A DNA stretch of 62,381 bases, the filler included, from Asterionella formosa (lineage: Eukaryota): assembly GCA_002256025.1 (NCBI GenBank). It is 19 parts of 19 records of this genome, joined end to end, with 100 filler letters (N's around TTAATTAATTAA, not from the genome) between each part and the next. Parts side by side here need not be neighbours in the genome. Positions count along the whole stretch, not along the records: positions 19,769 to 22,962 come from NKIB01014372.1; 18 more parts are not named here. One strand, given 5' to 3'. The position numbers and the translations under genes were made by a program. The notes beneath the pieces were generated by a model that had not been told where the DNA came from, searched no databases, and saw only the letters and a list, made by a program, of their open reading frames with translations. This document shows, one piece after another, positions 3,300 through 62,250 of the stretch. The first letter of the stretch is position 1; every line of letters begins with the position of its first letter.

Positions 3300-4391
3300 G
3301 CAACCTATGCAGTTACAGAAACAATGAGAAGGAATGATTTGTTAGCAAGTAGTCATGTTACATTGAAACAACGACACGCAATTCCATCGTATCCTCTTGC
3401 TTCACTTACCACAAATCAATGCAACTGATGCATAAGTCTGTAATAGTAACTTGTCAGTAAGCCAAATTCTTGAATAAGTAAGTTTCGGGTATCCAATGTT
3501 GTTGAATAAACTTACCGGTACATTTTTGTCATCTTAACTTTGAGAGAAGGTAAACGTTTTGTCAGCTTTGTTCCAACAGAAGTGAATAGGTCCAACGAGC
3601 GACAAGAGCACTTACGCAATTTGGTTTGGTTTTGTTTTACATTGGTGCTCCCCAACAAGCAAATCGAGCTGTTGAATCAACTGAGAAAAAAGGAAATGTG
3701 GCTGCGTTTAGTTAACAATTTGTTGTTGTGCTGCCTGTCTCCCAACGATTGTCATCCAAGTAGCTACCACATTGATGGCTTCATTATATTACCTTAAACA
3801 TTCTCCATCCTTCGAAGGCGCAATGTGTCGAAGTCACAATGTTTTTCGTTATGTATTGCGAAAATTTTCTTTTCTTTTAATGTGCTTTACTACGACGTAT
3901 CTTTTCATGAAGCAGCAGGCATTGTTTGTTAACATGACAGAACGATTTCAAAAATATATATGCCATGGATATAGTAATAAAATTTGTAAATATATATATA
4001 TATTAAGCGTTGCACATTTATAAAATTCAAAAGCGCTCTCGATATGGAACATCTGATATGGTTGAGATGGCCATACTCGCATATACATAATTCGAAAATA
4101 CTCAATGCACTATATGTCCATTTTTTCCACGACTACGTGTACCGGAATTGTTTCTGAAATTGTTTGCATCGATATTTTCTACATCCGTTGAAACTAATTT
4201 TTTAGACCGTTCAAATGCAGCAAGGGTTTTGGTAGCAAATTGTTTAAGCCCCTTTTTTGGGCGGAAGCTCTTCATGTGTACCGGTACATCATATGACAAT
4301 AACAATGTATCATTTATACATACAGGGTACCAGTAGCAGGTAGTAAGTGATATACTGGGGGTAGTCGGAGTAGTACCGGTAAACTAGCAAC

Positions 4392-4706
4392 AGAACACCA
4401 TATGTTCAGGACTGTTGCTACTGCAGTGGGACAGTAAATCATCATAGTTTTAGGATCGTATGATCGTAAGCCTAAAAACCAATAGAACACAAAATTTCTA
4501 TGACTGCTGCTACTGCAGCGGGACAGTAAATCATCATAATTTTAGGATTGTATGATCGTAAAACTGAAAACTAATGGAATACCATATATTCAGGACTGTT
4601 GCTACTACCGTGGGACAATAAATCATCATAGTTCTAGGATTGTATGATCGTAAAACTAATAACCAATAGTCGGAATAATAAGCGAGCAACAGAACACCAT
4701 ATGTTC
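4392..4706. repeat. Tandem array of ~92-bp units with hairpin core AGTTTTAGGAT-n6-ATCGTAAAACT
   Basis: Units start at 4392, 4484 and 4576, with a partial unit at 4691. Homologous arrays lie at 40850-41165 and 54995-55531. Confidence 0.9.
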
Positions 4707-5514
4707 TGGCATACCTACCCGGTAGTTATCATAATATTGCTTTTATGAATTTAACTGGCGCGATAATTAGCCAGGCTGACAAGTTACTACCGGTACCAAG
4801 TAGTACGTCTACATCTTTTATCAGCACCTTTAAGTAGCACCTACAGTTATGGTGGTACTATGTTTTTCCCTATTATTTTCTGTCGCAGCTCTGTAGAGAG
4901 GCTGTGAAAGTCAAAGCGCTGCCCCCCGCCCCCCTCTATTACCGGTATACCGGAAAAATTTGGTACATCACCCATTATCGTGCGTTGCAACGGCCCGTGA
5001 CAGGGTGGCTGTGGTTATGGAGCAGGGGGTAGAACGCCACAACATGACGAAGTCCCAAGGATCATGAATGGAAAGAAAACTTTGCTGCATTCTGGTGGTA
5101 CCATTGGACTTGGAAAACAGCGAGGAAGGTTGTATCCCACCGTATCAAACGGTTTCGAATAAGAGGAGTTGGAACGATGAGATGTGACAAGAACCGACCT
5201 GACACTTCTGTCCAACTTGGTCGATGGATGTCTCCCGCTTATTTGTGACTTCCTGCGCAACAAAACTTGCCACAACGACGAATCAAACGGTTTCGAATAT
5301 GAGGAGTGGTTGGAACGAAGAGACTTGTCATAAACATGACACTTCTGTCCGAGTCGGTCGATGGAGCAAAAGAAACGACACCAGCGTCCGGTTATTTGCT
5401 AATGGCTGTACTTGATTAAAAACAAATAACCATTTTGTTAGTAACTATTTATGAGTAAATAAAAATTCTTACTTCCATCTTTCCCCATAGGAATCAAGCA
5501 AAAACGAAACTAGT

Positions 5515-5616
5515 CCTGACGAGGAATACTGTGTCGTCGATCCGGAAAGTGGGGAACTCATTCGTCTCACAGTAGCCGAAAAGCAGCGTATCTTTCTGGA
5601 CGCGCTTCAGTCCTAC
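5515..5616 (+). pseudogene. PGRL1: Captured PGRL1 (PGR5-like 1) gene fragment
   Basis: Translates as PDEEYCVVDPESGELIRLTVAEKQRIFLDALQSY, the same segment as 41890-42072 and 55541-55818. It is preceded in frame by an acceptor-like ttccccatAG ending at 5490. Confidence 0.7.
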
Positions 5617-22408: not shown

Positions 22409-22962
22409 TGTCAAGAATATAGCATCAATGGCTATAATGAGTCACAAGGACTGTGGACTCGACTAAAGTCCAATGAGTCAAATGGTGCGTTCCCATGTCA
22501 AGAAGCTTGCTAACGAGATTGATGTCTTAGATCAATCAGAAGAAGGTTTACATCAACGAAAAGGGAACACGAAGAACAGGTTCTCGAAGTGTGATGAATG
22601 GGATTGAAACTTAGTTTTAGTTTAATCTTATAATTAAGAAACAGTGAGAATTGACAGAGTAAGGTCAATAGCGAAAACTAGCACGAAGGCTAGCAGCAGA
22701 AAGAAGATAACAATACTAGTGGTATAACAGGTAAGTTCTACGTAAGAGGAACCCGTCAGACGGGAAGGAGTACGAGACCTTTCAACACGCTTTAAAGCGA
22801 TCACTTTTAAGGCCACAGGCTACTCAGGAACCATGGGAAGTGACGAAGACACGTCAGTGAGGTTGCCGACATTCGATGGGCAAGATGCTAAATGGCACAT
22901 GTGGAAAGCGAAGTTTCTCGCATACGCCGCGTGCTACAAGAACTTTCAAGGAATACTTAACG
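22409..22962 (+). mobile_element. Ty1/Copia element 1: 5' LTR (22409-22787), palindrome (22788-22799) and start of gag (22833-)
   Basis: TGTCAAGA...TTTCAACA LTR-like ends. The gag N-terminus RLPTFDGQDAKWHMWKAKFLAYA is homologous to the gag starts at 25221 and 59718. Confidence 0.8.
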
Positions 22963-23062: not shown

Positions 23063-25677
23063 TTCGAGTTAGCGACAGAGTTCGTTAGTCGCGTGTGCAT
23101 GTGGACACTCTCGGCCCACAGTAGCCCCTGGTATTCGTCTGACAGTTTTGCACTGAACATGGAGGCACATGCTCGGTCTCGTATCGTCACAAATTTTCGT
23201 TCCACGACTCCGTTCTGTTGAGGAGTATGGGGGGCAGTATACTCAATCTGAATACCCTGCGTGGTGCAGACGATACTTAGACTGGTCATATTTTCACCGG
23301 CGTTGTCGCAGCGTAGGAAGCGTACTACATAGCCCGCTGACTTGAGTGTAGTCAGTAGGGCATCCGCGATGCTCGCCAAAAGACTCTTCTTGTTAACAAA
23401 ATAACTCCATGCCTTGCCTGTGTACTGATCCACAAATAGAATCCAGTAGTTGCTTCCAATTAGAGATTTCTTGTAGGGACCTGAAATGTCCACGTACAAT
23501 CGTTCAGCAGGAGTAGAGGCCTTGAGGGTCGTGACTTTAGGTACCGCTTTGGCCTTTGCCTAAGCTAGTGCGCAGCCTTCACACGACTGAATCTTGCCCG
23601 TAGGTTCAATACCGAGGGACTTAAGCGTTTCGCGAAGGGATGCCTTGCTGATGTGGCCATATTTGTCGTGGGTCTCGTTGATGTCAATTTGCGTTGGTTT
23701 CTTGGTAGATTTTGCCGTAGGAAGTTGCGTCACTGACTTGGTATTCGTTGGAGTAGGATCAGGTGTATGGTTTGTTGTCGAGTCGTGGATAGACAAGACC
23801 GTTTCGGATTGTAGGGTACGTTTTCCCTTGAAGTAGTAAAGGACGCCTTGATCCTCACAAGAAAAGGTTAGTTCGTTGTCGTACCCTTCCTTATGTAGAC
23901 TCAACTCAGAACCCTTCATGCGTGCCTCGCACCCTCCGTTCTTGAAAAATTGCCCGATGCTGACGATGTTCTTGTGGAAGTGTGGAGTGTAGAGTACCTT
24001 GCGTAGTAACATGGAGCACGTCTTGTTGGTAATCAGAATATCACCTCGTTTCGTGCATACCACCTCTTTACCGTCACCGACAACGACCGAGACGTTGACA
24101 TTTTCGACGTTTGTCATGTATTCGTCAGTCATAGTGATGTGCGTGGTAGCCCCAGTGTCCGCGAGCCAGCGCTCCGTTCCGTTGCTTGATGCACAGTACT
24201 GGTCTTCGTACCACTCGTCTTCCATTGTAGGGACGAAACACACGCGTAGGAGTTCTTCAGCAGGAGTCTCTGTAGTTTTCTGCGTGACGTCCATGGTACC
24301 AGGGATAGCATCCGTCGCCTCCATACCGGTAATCTCCTCGCCGGTTTCTTTCTTCTTCTCGCCACGTGGTGCGCGTTTTGGTTCCGGGCAGTCTCTTGCA
24401 ATATGCCCGACATATTTATTGCAATTATAGCACTTTATCTCATTTTTTTCGTTCGTACCGTTTGCATTCGTTCCGCTTGTGTTCGTATTAGATCGGCACA
24501 CGTCGGCCTTGTGCCCTTGTTTGCCGCAGTTCTTGCAGATACATTTGTATTTCTGCGTGAATAGGGTGATCTCCTTTGTGCTCTTCGTGCCCTTTAGCTT
24601 TCGTTTGTAGAATGCTCGGATCTTTCCTTTCAATTCGTTGAGGCTGATTGTTGTCATGCCCTCGACGACTGTAACAACCTCGCTGTACTCCACTGGAAGC
24701 TTGTCGATAACGTTCGCAATCACTTCCATTTCTTTCTTCTCAAATGACGGGTCGATCGCCATCATCTTGCTTTGTATTAGATCGAGCTCAATGAACCATT
24801 CGTCTGGATCAGAGGAGCTATTGTTCAGCTTGCATTTGTTGAAATCGCTTGCCAGCTGGATCAGGTCCGACACAGAATGGGGGGCATACCTCGCTTCGAG
24901 GTTCTTCCACGCCATGTATGCATCGCCATCGATCAACGTTTTCGTTTTGGCTTGGTTTACGAGTCCGAAGGCGATTCCGGTGCAGCTCATGATGAGCAAC
25001 TGGTACGCCTTGTCGTTGGCCTCGTAGATAGCCCTGACTCCTTTGTCTGTCTCGACTTCGTACTCTTCGTCAGAACATGGGTTGTGGTTCTTGGAGTACA
25101 TCGTTCGGAATCCTCTTGCCTTCGCCAGAGCGAGCGTTTTAACGCTCCACTGGTACCAGTTCGTTTCGTTGCCATCAAACTTGATGAGCCTCATGCTCTC
25201 TTCAGACATTTCTGTAGACATGTTAAAACACTTAAGTCCGTTTATAAACGTGTTAAAGTATTACCTTTTGTATAGATCTATATCGTTAGACAAAGAAGAC
25301 TATAGATAGAGACGTTCGTTTCTCTTTCCGTTTCTATATTCTTATTGTGAGTTTACTAATCTAGTTTAGGTTGTTCTGTTTGAACAAACAAACGAACTAT
25401 TCTCCAAATGCTGTTTGCATTTCTAGAAACATACAATCATAGATAGACCCATGTCTATCTCACACTTACTGATCATAAGTTTTTAACCATGATCATTCAT
25501 TTTCAAACTATCGGTCTTCCGAAATAGCTTACATTGTCCGGCTCATTATAGTCGGAGTAACAAGGTATAATGTGTGGTTGATGAGAGCTTGGTACATCAA
25601 AGTGGACTCATTCGAATCGTTTGACTCGTTTGACTCCGAGTCCTAACTACGTACCGGTAGATGAGCTCACTTTAACA
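23063..25677 (-). mobile_element. Ty1/Copia element 2: 5' LTR (25251-25677) and gag-protease-integrase; truncated at contig end
   Basis: LTR has perfect 9-bp terminal IR TGTTAAAGT/ACTTTAACA. Two CCHC knuckles, protease WLADTGAT, H-H-C-C motif, and integrase (VDISGP, LRCDNAGE, PQQNGVVER). One in-frame TAG at 23560-62 where element 3 has Lys. Confidence 0.95.
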
Positions 25678-39627: not shown

Positions 39628-42072
39628 GCCAACTATTCCGTTGTTTGATTGGTTTTATGGTCCTATGCAGTTACAGAAACAATGAGAAGGAATGATTTGT
39701 TAGCTAGTAGTCATGTTACATTGAAACAACGACACGCAATTCCATCGTATCCTCTTGCTTCACTTACCACAAATCAATGCAACTGAGGATGCATAAGTCT
39801 GTTATAGTAACTTTTCAGTAAGCCAAATTCTTGAATAAGTAAGTTTCGGGTATCCAATGTTGTCGAATAAAACTTACCGGTTCATTTTTGTCATCTTCAC
39901 TTTGAGAGAAGGTAAACGTTTTGTCAGCTTTGTTCCAACAGAAGTGAATAGGTCCAACGAGCGACAAGAGCACTTACGCAATTTGGTTCGGTTTTGTTTT
40001 ACATTGGTGCTCCCCAAGTCAGCTTTGTTCCAACAGAAGTGAATAGGTCCAACGAGCGACAAGAGCACTTACGCAATTTGGTTCGGTTTTGTTTTACATT
40101 GGTGCTCCCCAACAAGCGAAACGAGCTGTTGAATCAACTGAGAAAAAAGGAAATGTGGCTGCGTTTAGTTAACAATTTGATGTTGTGCTGCCTGTCTCCC
40201 AACGATTGTCATCCTAGTACCACATTGATGGCTTCATTACCTTAAACATTCTCCATCCTTCGAAGGCACAATGTGTCGAAGTCACAATGTTTTTTTCGTT
40301 ATGTATTGCGTAAACTTACTTTGCTTTTCATGTGATTTACTACGACATATCTTTTCATGAAGCAGCAGGCATTGTTTGTTAACATGACAGAACGATTTCA
40401 AAAATAAATATGCCATGAATACAGTAATAGAATTTGTAAATATATGTATATATATATATTAAGTAATATACATTTATAAAATTCAAAGGCGCTCTCGATA
40501 TGGAACATCTGATATGGTTGAGATGGCCATACTCGCATATACATAATTCGAAAATACTCAATGCACTATATGTCCATTGTTTTCCACAACTACGTGTACC
40601 GGAATTGTTTCTGAAATTTGTTTGCATCGATATTTTCTACGTCCGTTGAAACTAATTATTTAGACCGTTCAAATGCCGCAAGGGTTTTGGTAGCAAATTG
40701 TTTAATCCCCTTTTTTGGGCGGGAGCTCTTCATGTGTACCGGTACATCATATGACAATAACAATGTATCATTTATACATACAGAGTACCAGTAGCAGGTA
40801 GTAACTGATATACTGGGGGTAGTCGGAGTAGTACCGGTAAACTAGCAACAGAACACCATTTGTTCAGGACTGTTGCTACTGCAGTGGGACAGTAAATCAT
40901 CATAGTTTTAGGATTGTATGATCGTAAAATTATGATCCAAAAGAACACCATATGTTCATGACTGCTGCTATTGCAGCGGGACAGTAAATCATCATAGTTT
41001 TAGGATCGTATGATCGTAAAAGTAAAAACCAATGGAATACCATATATTCAGGACTGTTGCTACTACCGTGGGACAATAAATCATCATAGTTCTAGGATTT
41101 TATGATCGTAAAACTAAAAACCAATAGTCGGAGTAATAAGCGAGCAACAGAACACCATATGTTCTGGCATACCTACCCGGTAGTTATCATAAAATTGCTT
41201 TTATGAATTTAACTGGCGCGATAATTAGCCATGCTGACGAGTTACTACCGGTACCAGGTAGAACGTCTACATCTTTTATCAGCACCTACAGTTATGGTGG
41301 TACAATGTTTTTCCCTATTATTTTCTGTCGCAGCTTGTAGAGAGGCTGTGAAAGTCAAAGCGCTGCCCCCCGCCCCCCCCCTCTATTATACCGGAAAATT
41401 TTGGTACATCACCCATTATCGTGCGTTGCAACGGCCCACGACAGGGTGGCTGTGGTTATGGAGCAGGGGGTAGAACGCCACAACATGACGAAGTCCCAAG
41501 GATCATGAATGGGTGGTACCATTGGACTTAGGAAACAGCGAGGAAGGTTGTATCCCGCCGTATCAAATGGTTTCGAATAAAAGGAGTTGGAACGAAGAGA
41601 TGAGACAAGAACTGACCTGACACTTCTGTCCGACTTGGTTGATGGATGTCTCCCGCCTATTTGTGACTTCCTGCGCAACAAAACAAAACTTGCCACAACG
41701 ACGAATCAAACGGGTTTCGAATATGAGGAGTGGTTGGAACGAAGAGACTTGTCATAAACATGACACTTCTGTCCGACTCGGTCGATGGAGCAAAAGAAAC
41801 GACACCATTTTGTTAGTAACTATTTATGAGTAAATAAAAATTCTTACTTCCATCTTTCCCCATAGGAATCAAGCAAAAACGAAACTAGTCCTGACAAGGA
41901 ATACTGTGTTGTCGATCCGGAAAGTGGGGAACTCATTCGTCTCACAGTAGCCGAAAAGGAGCGTATCTTTCTGGACGCGCTTCAGTCCTATGATGCAGCT
42001 GGAAGGCAAATGCTCAAGGATGACGAATTTTACCTATTGAAGGAAGATTTGCAATGGAAGAACGGATCTGAG
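39628..42072. mobile_element. Repeat family A copy with an internal ~95-bp tandem duplication
   Basis: Collinear with 3300-5616. 39923-40016 is repeated at 40018-40111. The array lies at 40850-41165. Confidence 0.85.
41890..42072 (+). pseudogene. PGRL1: Captured PGRL1 fragment (longest 3' extent)
   Basis: PDKEYCVVDPESGELIRLTVAEKERIFLDALQSYDAAGRQMLKDDEFYLLKEDLQWKNGSE matches the PGRL1 pattern E..FL.ALQS.Y..G...M..EEF..LKE.L.W.GS. Confidence 0.8.
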
Positions 42073-53713: not shown

Positions 53714-55818
53714 AATGCTATCTATTAATCTACATGCCAGCGACCCAACGTTTCTCTCTCCACTCGGCTCAATGTATATTCCTTTCTTGCTCTTTCTTCC
53801 TCTGATCTGAATCGTGTGCGAGGCAGTGCCTTACTGATGCTGCGTCTCTTTCCCTGCTGTAAGTGTCATTCTTAACTTGCCGACTATTCCGTTGTTTGAT
53901 TGTTTTCATTGTCCTATGCATGCAATTACAGTTACAATGAGAAGGAATGGTTTGTTAGCTAGTCATGTTACATTGACACAAGAACACGCAATTCCATCGT
54001 ATCCTCTTGCTTCACGTACCACAAATCAATGCAACTGATGCATAAGTCTGTAATAGTAACCTGTCAGTAAATTCTTGAATAAGTAAGTTTCGGGTATCCA
54101 ATGTTGTGGAATAAAACTTACCGGTTCATTTTTGTCATCTTAACTTTGAGAGAATATAAACGTTTTGTTAGTTTTGTTCCAACAGAAGTGAATAGGTCCA
54201 ACGAGCGACAAGAGCACTTACGTAATTTGGTTTTGTTTTACATTGGTGCTCCCCAACAAGCGAAACGAGCTGTTGAATCATCTGAGAAAAAAGGAAATGT
54301 GGCTGCGTTTAGTTAACAATTTGTTGTTGTACTGCCTGCCTCCCAATGATTGTCATCCAAGTACCACATTGATGGCTTCATTACCTTAAACATTCTCCAT
54401 CCTTCGAAGGCGCAATGTATCGAAGTCACAATGTTTTTCGTGATGTATTGCGAAAACTTTCTTTTCTTGTCATGTGCTTTACTACGACGTATCTTTTCAT
54501 GAAGCAGCAGGCATTGTTTGTTAACATGACAGAACGATTTCAAAAAAATATATGCCATGTATATAGTAATATAATTTGTAAATATATATATATAAATTAA
54601 GTGTTATACATTTATAAAATTCAAAGGCGCTCTCGATATGGAACATCTGATATGGTTGGGATGATCATACTCGCATATACATAATTCGAAAATACTCAAT
54701 GCACTATATGTCCATTGTTTTCCACGACTACCGGTACATGTACCGGTATTATCTCTGAAATTTGTTTGCATCGATATTTTCTACGTCCGTTGAGACTAAT
54801 TATTTAGACCGTTCAAATGCCGCAAGGGTTTTGGTAGCGAATTGTTTAAGCCCCTTTTTTGGGCGGGAGCTCTTCATGTGTACCGTTACATCATATGACA
54901 ATGACAATATATCATATATATACACGGAGTACCAGTAGCAGGTAGTAAGTGATATAGCTACTGGGGGTAGTCGGAGTAGTAAACTAGTAGCAACAGAACA
55001 CCATATGTTCAGGACTGTTGCTACTGCAGTGGGACAGTAAATCATCATAGTTTTAGGATAGTATGATTGTAAAACTAAAACCCAATAGAACACCATATGT
55101 TCATGACTGTTGCAATTACAGTGGGACAGTAAATCATCATGATTTTAGGATTGTATGATTGTAAAACTAAAAACAAATCGAAAACTATATGTTCAGAACT
55201 GTTGCTACCATAGCACACTGCAGTGGGACAGTAAATCATCATAGTTTTAGGATTGTATGATCGTAAAACTAAAAAGCAGTAGTCGGAGTAATAAGCAAGC
55301 AATAGAACACCATAGTAAATCATCATAGTTTTAGGATTGTATGATCGTGAAACTGAAAAGCGGTACTGGTAGTTGGAGTAATAAGCAAGCAATAGAACAC
55401 CATAGTAAATCATCATAGTTTTAGGATTGTATGATCGTGAAACTGAAAAGCGGTACCGGTAGTCGGAGTAATAAGCAAGCAATAGAACACCATATGTCTA
55501 TGACTGCTGCTACTACAGCGGGACAGTAAATGAATTTAAGATCATCGAACTTTAAGGAAGACAACGACAACAGCTGGTCGTGTTGCTGGTCCACTTTTAA
55601 TGGCCGAAGAAGGAAGCGACGAAAAGATCACCATTTTGAGCGGAACAAGAGAAATCGCTTACGACGCCAAGTCTGGACGATTCTTTGAGACTAACTTGCA
55701 GGAAGAAGAATGCATTCCTGACGAGGAATACTGTGTCGTCGATCCGGAAAGTGGGGAACTCATTCGTCTCACAGTAGCCGAAAAGGAGCGTATCTTTCCG
55801 GAAGCGCTTCAGTACTAC
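53714..55818. mobile_element. Repeat family A copy with expanded tandem array and a longer 5' PGRL1 fragment
   Basis: Collinear with 2989-3199 and 3300-4700. The array at 54995-55531 has five hairpin cores. Confidence 0.85.
55541..55818 (+). pseudogene. PGRL1: PGRL1 N-terminal fragment (end of transit peptide plus start of mature protein)
   Basis: ...AGRVAGPLLMAEEGSDEK...ECIPDEEYCVVDPESGELIRLTVAEKERIFPEALQYY. There is no signal peptide upstream, and FLD has become FPE. Confidence 0.7.
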
Positions 55819-59360: not shown

Positions 59361-62250
59361 TGACAAATAGTGAAGGGATCATTTGAGTCGAGTCACAAAA
59401 GTGACTGCAACTATGATTAAGCTCCAACTATGTGTTATAGTAAATGTGGCTCCCAGGGACCACAGATGACGAGATGATTGAAGTAGAAGTTGAAAGATCG
59501 AAAATGGATCTTAGGAAGGAGCTTATTCTAAGAAGTAGAAAGCTCACAATAAAGTAAAGCAGAAAGTGAGTTTCTGACGTTTACTAAAGATCTAGAAGTA
59601 GATCACGAGAAATAGCTAGCTGAGAGTGAAGTATAGACGTATACTACTCAAGAGTACTAGATACTTTAACACGTTTATAAACGGACCTTTGTATCTACAA
59701 AGCAAAAGATAAGTAGCATGACTACAGCAGAAGAGAAAGTCGGAACCATCAAGTTTGATGGAGACGAAAACCATTGGCATGAGTGGAGCGTGAAGGCGCT
59801 CGCTCTGGCCAAAAGCAAGGGGTTTCGCCATGTCTATGCCAACGACACAAAACCATGCTCAGATGTGGTCTATTTGACTTCGACGCACAACGAAGAGAAG
59901 AAAAAGTATGAGGATAACGATAAAGCTTACCAGTTTTTAATCCTCAGCTGCACTGGAATCGCTTTTGGGTTAGTGAATCATGCAAAGACGAAGGACCTAA
60001 TCGATGGCGATGCTTTCTTAGGATGGAAGAACCTTAACGACAGGTATGCGCCCAACGAAGCATTAAATTGATTCAGCTTGCTGGAGAATTCAACAAGTGC
60101 AACCTCAAGGATACGAAACCCTGATGAATGGTTCATTAAGTTAGACAACATCAGGAACAGGATGATACATATTGATATCGACTTCGAGAAAAAGGACGCC
60201 GAAGTCATCGCGCATATCATTGACAAACTTCCAGGAGAGTACAGCGAAGTGATTAATATGGTTGAAGGAGTAAAAAACGTGACGCTTACGGAGATCAAGG
60301 CTAAGATCAGGGCGTTCTACAAGCGCAAGTTCAAGACAACAGACAAGAATGAAGACGAATCGGCTTTGTTTGTCGGAGGAAAGTTTAAAGGGAACTGTCA
60401 CAACTGTGGAAAGCAGGGACACAAGGCAGCGGAATGCCGATCAAAAGCGAACACTGCTGGTGGTGGGAACAAGAAACGAGCAAAAGACGATGAATCCGTC
60501 GGCAAAGGAGTCAAATGTTTCAATTGTAATAAGTATGCTGGACACATTGCGAAAGATTGCCCTGAGAAAAATAAGAAAGACGAAAAGGACAAAGACAAAG
60601 AAACCGGAATGTATGTCGGGGTGAGGATTGCGATCGATGACGACGAAGAAACTGCGAAAGAAGTCGTCGAACTCATCAAGAAGACGAACAACAATGAGTT
60701 CAAAAACAAAATCGAAAATAACGAATTTTGTGGAGTGAGTGATGATGTCAAGACTGAAGAATGGTTAGCGGATACAGGAGCTACATGTCATATCACTACG
60801 TGCGATGTTGGTATGACAAATATCGAAACAGTCAAGACTCGAGTCATCGTTGGCAATGGAGAGGAAATTTTATGTACCAAACGTGGTGACATCCTCCTCA
60901 CTGATACTGCTACACAGAAGGTCCTACTCCTGAAGAAGGTCCTATATACACCTACCTTCCACAAGAATATACTAAGTGTCAGTATGTTTGTGCGAAATGG
61001 GAGTTTCGAGGTTGGTATTCTCAAGGACAAGATGACCCTACGCAAGGAAGGGGAGCAAAACGGACTAACTTTCAAGACCAAGGCCAACGGTGTGCTCTAC
61101 TATATGCATGGCACTAGAAAGTACGGCAACAAAACAGCATTGTCCACAGAGGACAAAAACGAGGAAGCTGCGCCGATGACCGGCAAACCTAGTACCGGTA
61201 AGCAAACACCTAAGAAAAGTATGGACATCAATGTCGCACATGACAAATTTGGGCACACTAGCAAGGCAGCTCTGCGTGCTACATTGAAGTCGATTGGTAT
61301 TGAGACCAGTGGAGCCCTACAGCCATGTGAGGGATGTGCTTTGGCTAAAGCAAAATCAAAGGCTGTACCTAAAGTTGCAAATAACAAAGCGACTATGGTA
61401 GGTGAGCGTTTAGGTGCAGATATAAGTGGCCCTTACAAGAAGTCCATTGTCGGGAGTACTTACCGGTACTGGATTTTGGTCGTTGATGAATATAGTGGAA
61501 AATCCTGGAGTTTCTTTGTCAAGAAAAAGTCGCAGATGGCGGCTACAGTGGAACCACTATTGCTTAAATTTCGTTATGCTAACTACATCATTCGGTACCT
61601 GCGATGTGACAATGCTGGGGAAAATATCAAGGGACTTTCTGCAATGTGTGACAGGCTTAATATCACTATCGAATTTACTGCCCCACATACTACCCCACAG
61701 CAAAACGGTATGGTGGAACGCAAATTTGTGACTATTAGAGACAGAAGCGTTGCTGCAATGTTAAAGGCTAAATTTTCTGATGAGTCACAAGGACTCTTAT
61801 GGGCAGAAAGTATCAACACACACACACGCCTCACAAATAGTGTATGCAACACAAATGACATGGAGAAAAGCTTGGATTGGATTTTCTATGGGAAGTGTCC
61901 CGAGATATATGATAATCTTGTTGAATTTGGAAGAATTGGTTGGGTAAAAATACCAGGAAAAATACCTAAACTTGAGGCAGGGGACACATACAGAATGTAC
62001 CAACCAGACACCAAGAAAGTGATCAATACTAGGAACATTAAGTGGGGAGAGTGGCATGGGAAGTCCAATATCACAACAGATATGACCGTTTATGACATCA
62101 CAGAAAATACATTGGATATATTCAACATCATTAGCATCTGATCCCGGAGAACCAAAAGGGTACAAACAAGCAATGACTGATCCTGAACGTGATAAGTGGA
62201 TTGAGGCAATGAAAGTGGAAATTAACAATTTCTACAAACGCAACATCTAA
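59361..62250 (+). mobile_element. Ty1/Copia element 3: 5' LTR ending at 59671, palindrome (59672-83), gag-protease-integrase and start of RT; degenerate
   Basis: Homologous to element 2 (IKFDGDENHWHEWSVKALALAK, two CCHC knuckles, WLADTGAT, LRCDNAGE). Frameshifts near 60070-60120. The LTR 5' boundary is uncertain. Confidence 0.93.

Follow-up and report, generated by a model that had tools for sequence, protein, structure and literature searches.

What primes reverse transcription in a retrotransposon whose primer-binding-site position is occupied by a sequence that is its own complement? This question is raised by a Copia element of Asterionella formosa (GenBank assembly GCA_002256025.1) in a stretch of 62,381 nucleotides, hereafter the window, that is composed of 19 contigs of ~3.2 kb each with N spacers between them. 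Minus-strand synthesis must begin at the base after the LTR. In this element, which belongs to a family designated A1, a perfect 12-bp palindrome (CGCTTTAAAGCG) begins at that base (Table 1). An earlier note on this DNA pointed out this palindrome and its relation to CGTTTATAAACG, which follows the LTR of two further window elements (families B1 and B2). We confirm both observations: the two sequences differ at positions 3, 6, 7 and 10, which make up two symmetric pairs. From composition, ~17 12-bp palindromes are expected in the window; a lone 12-bp palindrome therefore means little, and the signal lies in position and recurrence. Unrelated to the palindrome is a repeat family built of 92-bp tandem units, which occurs three times in the window (3304-5615, 39662-41990 and 53914-55817).

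Table 1. Post-LTR palindromes in the window and the element features that adjoin them.
Feature	Position	Strand	Remarks
5' LTR, Copia family A1, 379 bp, TG...CA	22409..22787	+	Ends match other copies exactly
Perfect 12-bp palindrome CGCTTTAAAGCG, primer-binding-site position	22788..22799	+	Zero spacer from LTR
Short leader, 33 nt	22800..22832	+	Copies diverge from first base past palindrome
gag start (MGSDEDTSVRLPTFDG...), 43 codons	22833..22962	+	Ended by contig end
Gag-protease-integrase, family B1	23063..25221	-	One in-frame stop; ended by contig end
Palindrome CGTTTATAAACG, family B1	25239..25250	-	After 5' LTR (about 25677-25251), 17 nt before gag ATG at 25221
Palindrome CGTTTATAAACG, family B2	59672..59683	+	After 5' LTR (about 59361-59671), 34 nt before gag ATG at 59718

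The position of the palindrome is well anchored by comparison with other copies. The earlier note took AACA to be the LTR end, and this is indeed the true end: other copies align over 22409-22787 and stop there. The last 18 bases of the LTR have 121 matches in the genome. At the 30 of these loci that we examined, the palindrome comes next in 7, unrelated sequence in 19 and the contig end in 4. Solo LTRs of family A1 end at AACA within 6-bp target-site duplications in 5/5 cases (L068, L071, L072, L077 and L081). Neumann et al. (2019) report that Copia target duplications are usually 5 bp, with 6 bp found in 0.4% of their plant survey (PMC6317226). The junction of LTR and CGCTTTAAAGCG is present in 77 exact genome copies (family A1 and its sister family A2 pooled), and the junction of LTR and CGTTTATAAACG in 49 exact copies spread over families B1-B3. 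As the earlier note described, the A1 element is divergent. Its LTR does not significantly match that of either other window element (best E 0.18), and its gag is 29-31% identical to theirs (a figure from sister family A2; the window fragment itself gives 12/27 identities).

The window copy of A1 is a fragment that breaks off inside gag. We identified the full 1547-aa gag-PR-IN-RT-RH frame of this family in a metagenome contig (L088). Copia identity is indicated by gag (Pfam accession PF14223), zinc knuckle (PF00098), protease (PF22936) and integrase (PF00665) domains, with PF07727 present on the closest homologues. In both full frames (L088 and L090), integrase precedes RT, and the TG...CA LTR of 379 bp with its target-site duplication conforms to Ty1/copia. 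The A1 pol frame in L088 (253-4896) reads past the polypurine tract and ends ~150 bases inside the 3' LTR. Two CCHC motifs occur in L088, in L090 and in both window gag frames. These resemble the tandem CCHC zinc fingers of CoDi6, diatom Copia-lineage elements (Maumus et al., 2009, PMC2806351), in a comparison with the published description. The main text of that paper contains no description of CoDi6 primer sites; 'PBS' occurs there only as a buffer, and 'tRNA' and 'palindrom' do not occur. For the RT of a sister family, the nearest named homologues come from the diatoms Fragilaria crotonensis and Fistulifera solaris (45-47% identity), suggesting that the host of this Copia lineage is probably a diatom.

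We sought additional lineages by gag searches of the genome and of metagenomes, which retrieved 60 junction regions, and by RT alignment on prokaryote assemblies, which led to eukaryotic contigs binned there. In the A. formosa genome, family B4 has CGCTTGCAAGCG, family B5 has CGTTTTAAAACG and family D has TACTTCGAAGTA (13 exact copies); the three best copies of family C are each one end base off a 14-mer. The eukaryotic contigs in prokaryote assemblies contain CGTTTTAAAACG, CGTTTTTAAAAACG, CGCTAATTAGCG, CGCTATATAGCG, CGTTATATAACG, CGATAATTATCG, CGATTATAATCG, CGTTTATAAACG, TACTTCGAAGTA, TACCAATTGGTA and TACTTTAAAGTA. A further protein search yielded no named close relatives for these elements. 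The two sources together thus yield 13 distinct perfect post-LTR palindromes: twelve 12-mers and one 14-mer, which has one added base per arm (L305 and L424). A perfect palindrome is lacking in a third A-type family, represented by three decayed copies (L105, L109 and L112). No family in this genome was found to have a CG-type 12-mer with a purine at position 3 (23 matches, below the reversed-pattern control), and no further locus came from a sample of 301 prokaryote genomes.

Several of the prokaryote reference assemblies (L304-L337 and L359-L424) hold many eukaryotic Copia contigs, one of them with 59 matches. L307, L310, L336 and L405 form one subclade with leaders of 1-1.8 kb from palindrome to gag and extra open frames. 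In L419 (1-51) and L416, an LTR end of the 14-mer family is inserted, inverted, inside an LTR of the same family, which fixes the LTR end of that family at AACA. We rejected a frequent repeat, TTCAACA-TGTTTATAATCG, which is unrelated and has no gag downstream. An abundant repeat containing TTCAACATGTTTATAATCG (L156-L162) likewise has no Copia gag after it. Viral contigs served as a degenerate-motif control: their 57 pattern matches, 5 of them palindromic with about 7 expected, are due to chance. Gag alignment found nothing in these contigs, and RT alignment found one locus, without a 5' junction. This locus (L338, 627-2174) is a relative of the Copia lineage on a 120-kb viral contig, and the fetched stretch stops short of the 5' junction.

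CA followed by a perfect palindrome of at least 12 bases is present in 27 of 32 leader intervals, versus 0.6 expected from shuffles. For the own-genome families in this count, the representative copy was picked after inspection, and a pattern search supplied two of the foreign loci; foreign loci found through protein homology alone were positive in 17/20 cases, some of them redundant. The count covers loci with a leader interval and a complete LTR end, which places RT-only contigs and L405, L409, L408, L414, L387, L416, L419, L333, L362, L370, L378 and L338 outside it, along with the outgroups L325 and L327. The five misses comprise two decayed copies (B6 and C), the imperfect L406, L423, which is probably a 3' LTR with host DNA behind it, and L366, which probably falls short of the LTR.

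These palindromes span a broad clade. In a quick RT-RNase H tree (SH-aLRT), palindrome families fall on both sides of the clade's deepest split, and a branch of support 100 lies between this clade and the plant and oomycete elements together with two elements of the GGTTATG type. The most distant palindrome families share about 31% RT-RH identity with A1, close to the level of the outgroups. Two outgroup elements have GGTTATG, of the half-tRNA-Met type, in place of the palindrome.

The earlier note proposed that selection acts on self-complementarity rather than on complementarity to a fixed external primer, and that covariation should be visible across a larger set of elements. We aligned 21 family-level junctions without gaps, excluding both 14-mer families, near-duplicates and the three decayed A-type copies and keeping two imperfect rows. 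The 12-mer begins at the base after the LTR's CA in 21/21 rows, and 123 of the 126 paired cells (97.6%) are complementary. Changes are both-sided at 6/6 pairs and one-sided at none (38 cells). The covariation score is 0.82 vs 0.25 ± 0.04 in shuffles. Because the shuffle ignores relatedness, we also counted changes on a tree of the 18 perfect-palindrome families, which requires at least 21 paired changes; the minima for pairs 1/12 to 6/7 are 2, 2, 6, 1, 3 and 7. The central pair 6/7, with four pair types, is the most variable. Pairing falls to 36-46% when slid by 1-3 columns, and one column off register it stands at 38%, the shuffle level. The edge of the symmetry is sharp, with the next pair outward forming in 6/21 rows and the one beyond in 2/21. 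The outer bases are partly conserved (CG in 16/21 rows), and outer CG-to-TA changes could owe something to CpG deamination. In 18 collapsed contigs, a purine tract and a TG start lie upstream. This start resembles the inverted LTR end in most, matching at least 8/10 bases in 9/18, where the best-scoring candidate is not always the true start. With 13 palindromes and all six pairs covarying, the expectation of the earlier note is borne out and its proposal of selection on self-complementarity is strongly supported. The covariation also defines the selected feature: perfect symmetry including the centre, exact register and sharp edges.

Folding predictions indicate what kind of pairing may be under selection. 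Predicted dimers range from −11 to −21 kcal/mol vs 0 to −2.6 for hairpins, and pairs 5/8 and 6/7 are unable to form in a hairpin. That a pair impossible in the hairpin changes most points to a selected pairing between two strands, in a duplex of two molecules. Single-strand folds of the junction regions are no more stable than shuffles (z −0.4 to −1.3). A U5-leader stem around the site reaches p<0.05 in 7/25 rows and beats every swapped partner in 9/25 (mean z −1.3); for the window A1 element this enclosing stem is not significant (p 0.53).

We also searched for other primers. In Ty1/copia elements, the primer site normally pairs with the 3' end of a tRNA or with a half tRNA. In the present elements we found no TGG or GGTTATG start, and the best exact tRNA complement is 6-10 nt, at shuffle level, in a weak, low-power test against 60 distinct genes with 29 anticodons, many of them probably organellar. 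In the positive controls of this test, L325 reached only 8 nt and L327 failed to single out tRNA-Met. A complement of the Tf1/TAR type (at least 10 nt) is absent from the LTR in 7/7 families, where the longest exact match is 5-7 nt, and the best LTR duplex energy is at shuffle level in 21/21 families; the site is therefore not Tf1-type. A second arm downstream, of the GalEa type, appears in 2/22 rows at p<0.05, and the site is thus not a fungal CHS hairpin.

Any primer that pairs with a palindromic site must repeat the sequence of that site, so that the element's own RNA could supply it. By the same geometry, base 12 pairs with base 1, which would place the 3' OH next to the LTR's terminal A. 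With roughly even confidence, we propose that the palindrome replaces the tRNA primer-binding site and acts as a self-primer in trans across a broad Copia lineage. Two genomic RNAs packaged together would pair through the palindrome. A cut in one of them, immediately after base 12, would leave a 3' end that primes minus-strand synthesis on the other RNA, starting precisely at the LTR end and extending into U5. By analogy with Tf1, the enzyme responsible for the cut may be the element's RNase H, acting where the RNA duplex ends; RNase H cleavage of an RNA duplex was reportedly described for Tf1 by Levin in 1996. What the sequences show is a site that abuts the LTR, is perfectly symmetric in 13 versions, has changed in pairs at all six positions and loses its symmetry abruptly at its edges. 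Trans self-priming would explain why there is no spacer, why the edges are sharp, why the centre covaries and why a tRNA is missing. The persistence of self-complementarity across 13 sequences suggests that, in these elements, copying is likely initiated from a second RNA copy of the element itself.

Full symmetry, centre included, would also arise if the palindrome were only a dimer-initiation site that joins two genomic RNAs for packaging, as retroviral sites and Ty1 PAL1-PAL2 do, with something else responsible for priming. In several families the palindrome is displayed in the loop of a predicted U5-leader stem, and palindromes in the Ty1 5' UTR are described as required for dimers and mobility (PMC6844567). 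This explanation is nevertheless unlikely: a dimer-initiation site has no reason to adjoin the LTR end in every family, in the known elements covered by PMC5445492 it comes in addition to a primer site, and the tRNA and LTR-complement searches found no other primer site. Alternatively, an RNA cut after base 12 could fold back on itself (4-bp stem, 4-nt loop) so that RT copies its own U5-R, with full symmetry enforced by the need for the copies of primer and site to match at the second strand transfer. Such snap-back priming in cis has the same geometry, with a 3' end at the LTR edge, and explains the register; strand transfer would explain the central covariation, and single-strand predictions do fold the palindrome as a hairpin with a 4-bp stem. 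These hairpins, however, are barely stable when compared with the dimers, and the mirror-variant signature is absent, making priming in cis quite unlikely.

Dyad symmetry and partly conserved outer bases would fit a site on double-stranded DNA for a dimeric protein, such as a host factor, Gag or integrase. We consider this improbable, as no position is constant, distant families can have the same palindrome and close ones different palindromes, and a protein-binding role would leave the element without a primer site. It is more improbable still that each family uses a host RNA primer, a tRNA fragment or small RNA, whose complement happens to be palindromic: the tested tRNA set is incomplete and leaves out modified bases, but 13 different host palindromes would be needed and no match rises above shuffle level. 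Anticodon arms, moreover, are symmetric around a 7-nt loop, not around a point.

Several observations count against trans self-priming itself. Read-through junctions of LTR, palindrome and inverted U5 number 0 in the genome, and mirror-image variants, expected from a copied-back primer, are not enriched. By hand counts, the copies with A at position 12 include ~11 that also have T at position 1 and ~7 that have A at position 2, a ratio like that in the wider sample. Two A1 copies with different flanks (L100 and L101) both have the broken CACTATAAAGCA, so on one or more occasions an element with a broken site may have replicated. Trans self-priming would also require a stop that keeps plus-strand synthesis out of the primer. 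Decay of inserted copies is nearly as rapid in the palindrome as in the flanks, at 17/662 vs 729/18,962 for non-CpG positions and 55/329 vs 175/1,183 for CpG positions. Decay of the palindrome is mostly at CpG and mostly on one side. This pattern fits, without proving, selection that acts only during replication.

RNA-run contigs from three studies span LTR, palindrome and gag and contain no strand-switch joint, in data where contigs cannot reveal ends, strand or level. In a lake metatranscriptome (X2), R-U5 contigs corresponding to window positions 22645-22790 are ~thousandfold deeper than U3 or gag, in contigs that cannot show ends or level. This depth begins ~25 nt after a TATA-like run (22629-22638) and drops near the LTR end. 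A short RNA or strong-stop DNA may lie behind this signal, or it may be an artefact.

The earlier note further suggested that family-specific palindromes could limit dimerisation to like elements. Part of this stands, in that unlike pairs are predicted to be weak (mean −2.7 vs −14.7 kcal/mol for like pairs). Strict family specificity does not, since coexisting families of this genome share palindromes: one is common to A1 and A2 and another to B1, B2 and B3, whose RT-RH sequences are 59-62% identical. The same palindrome also recurs in distant lineages and differs in close ones. Given this sharing and reuse, any barrier between families would be only partial.

A comparable site has been described in fungal GalEa elements, which have a palindrome directly after the 5' LTR and no tRNA primer site (Donnart et al., 2017, PMC5445492). 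The GalEa palindrome has two main variants, CTGATCAGT and CTAATTAGT, that differ at a symmetric pair. It was proposed as a stand-in for the primer site; no mechanism accompanies the proposal, and according to the authors no model fits (PMC5445492). The present elements share with GalEa the missing tRNA primer site and the position of the palindrome, but differ in its length (12-14 nt vs 8-10 nt in GalEa), in lacking the second complementary arm that GalEa has 12-41 nt downstream (CHSeq2), and in having the RT/RNase H motifs KARLVV/KARVVV, YVDD and RTKHID where GalEa has KSRLVI, QTDD and CQPEA (PMC5445492). GalEa sits in Copia branch 1 (PMC5445492), which suggests that the two are probably of independent origins.

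Other known systems share some features with the present elements. Tf1/sushi elements (Ty3/gypsy) and the predicted self-priming TAR Copia are also tRNA-independent, and in them, as in the mode proposed here, the primer would be cleaved out of their own transcript (PMC4600332, PMC6317226). In Tf1, the mRNA 5' end pairs with a non-palindromic site (PMC4600332), whereas the present elements have no LTR complement and a site that is its own complement. Ty1 PAL1-PAL2 and retroviral dimer-initiation palindromes are likewise self-complementary leader sequences that join two genomic RNAs, but these coexist with a tRNA primer site (PMC6844567, PMC8096270). In MMTV, short palindromes inside the primer site are described as dispensable for dimers (PMC8096270). 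Neumann et al. (2019) distinguish three primer types among LTR retrotransposons (PMC6317226).

The literature we searched, to which subscription journals, Repbase and GyDB did not belong, contained no description of palindromic primer sites in diatom Copia elements or of dimer priming. The present site, in a probable diatom Copia lineage, is represented by 13 palindromes from several source assemblies; its published parallel in fungal GalEa belongs to another clade. Modes of starting LTR reverse transcription against which the proposed one can be set are priming by a whole tRNA, by a half tRNA and by Tf1-type 5'-end self-priming. We suggest tentatively, with slightly less than even confidence, that the palindrome represents a fourth mode, in which the dimer contact would be the primer site and one genomic RNA would be sacrificed to prime the other. 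This mode would go back to the common ancestor of a large and old Copia clade, with a separate origin in fungal GalEa that would explain the palindrome there.

LTR finders that rely on tRNAs will rate a large group of algal elements as having no primer site. If priming by a partner RNA is true, it would constitute a new priming mode. Elements that use it would need no host tRNA and would escape control by tRNA fragments directed at the primer site, and dimerisation of their genomes would be tied to initiation.
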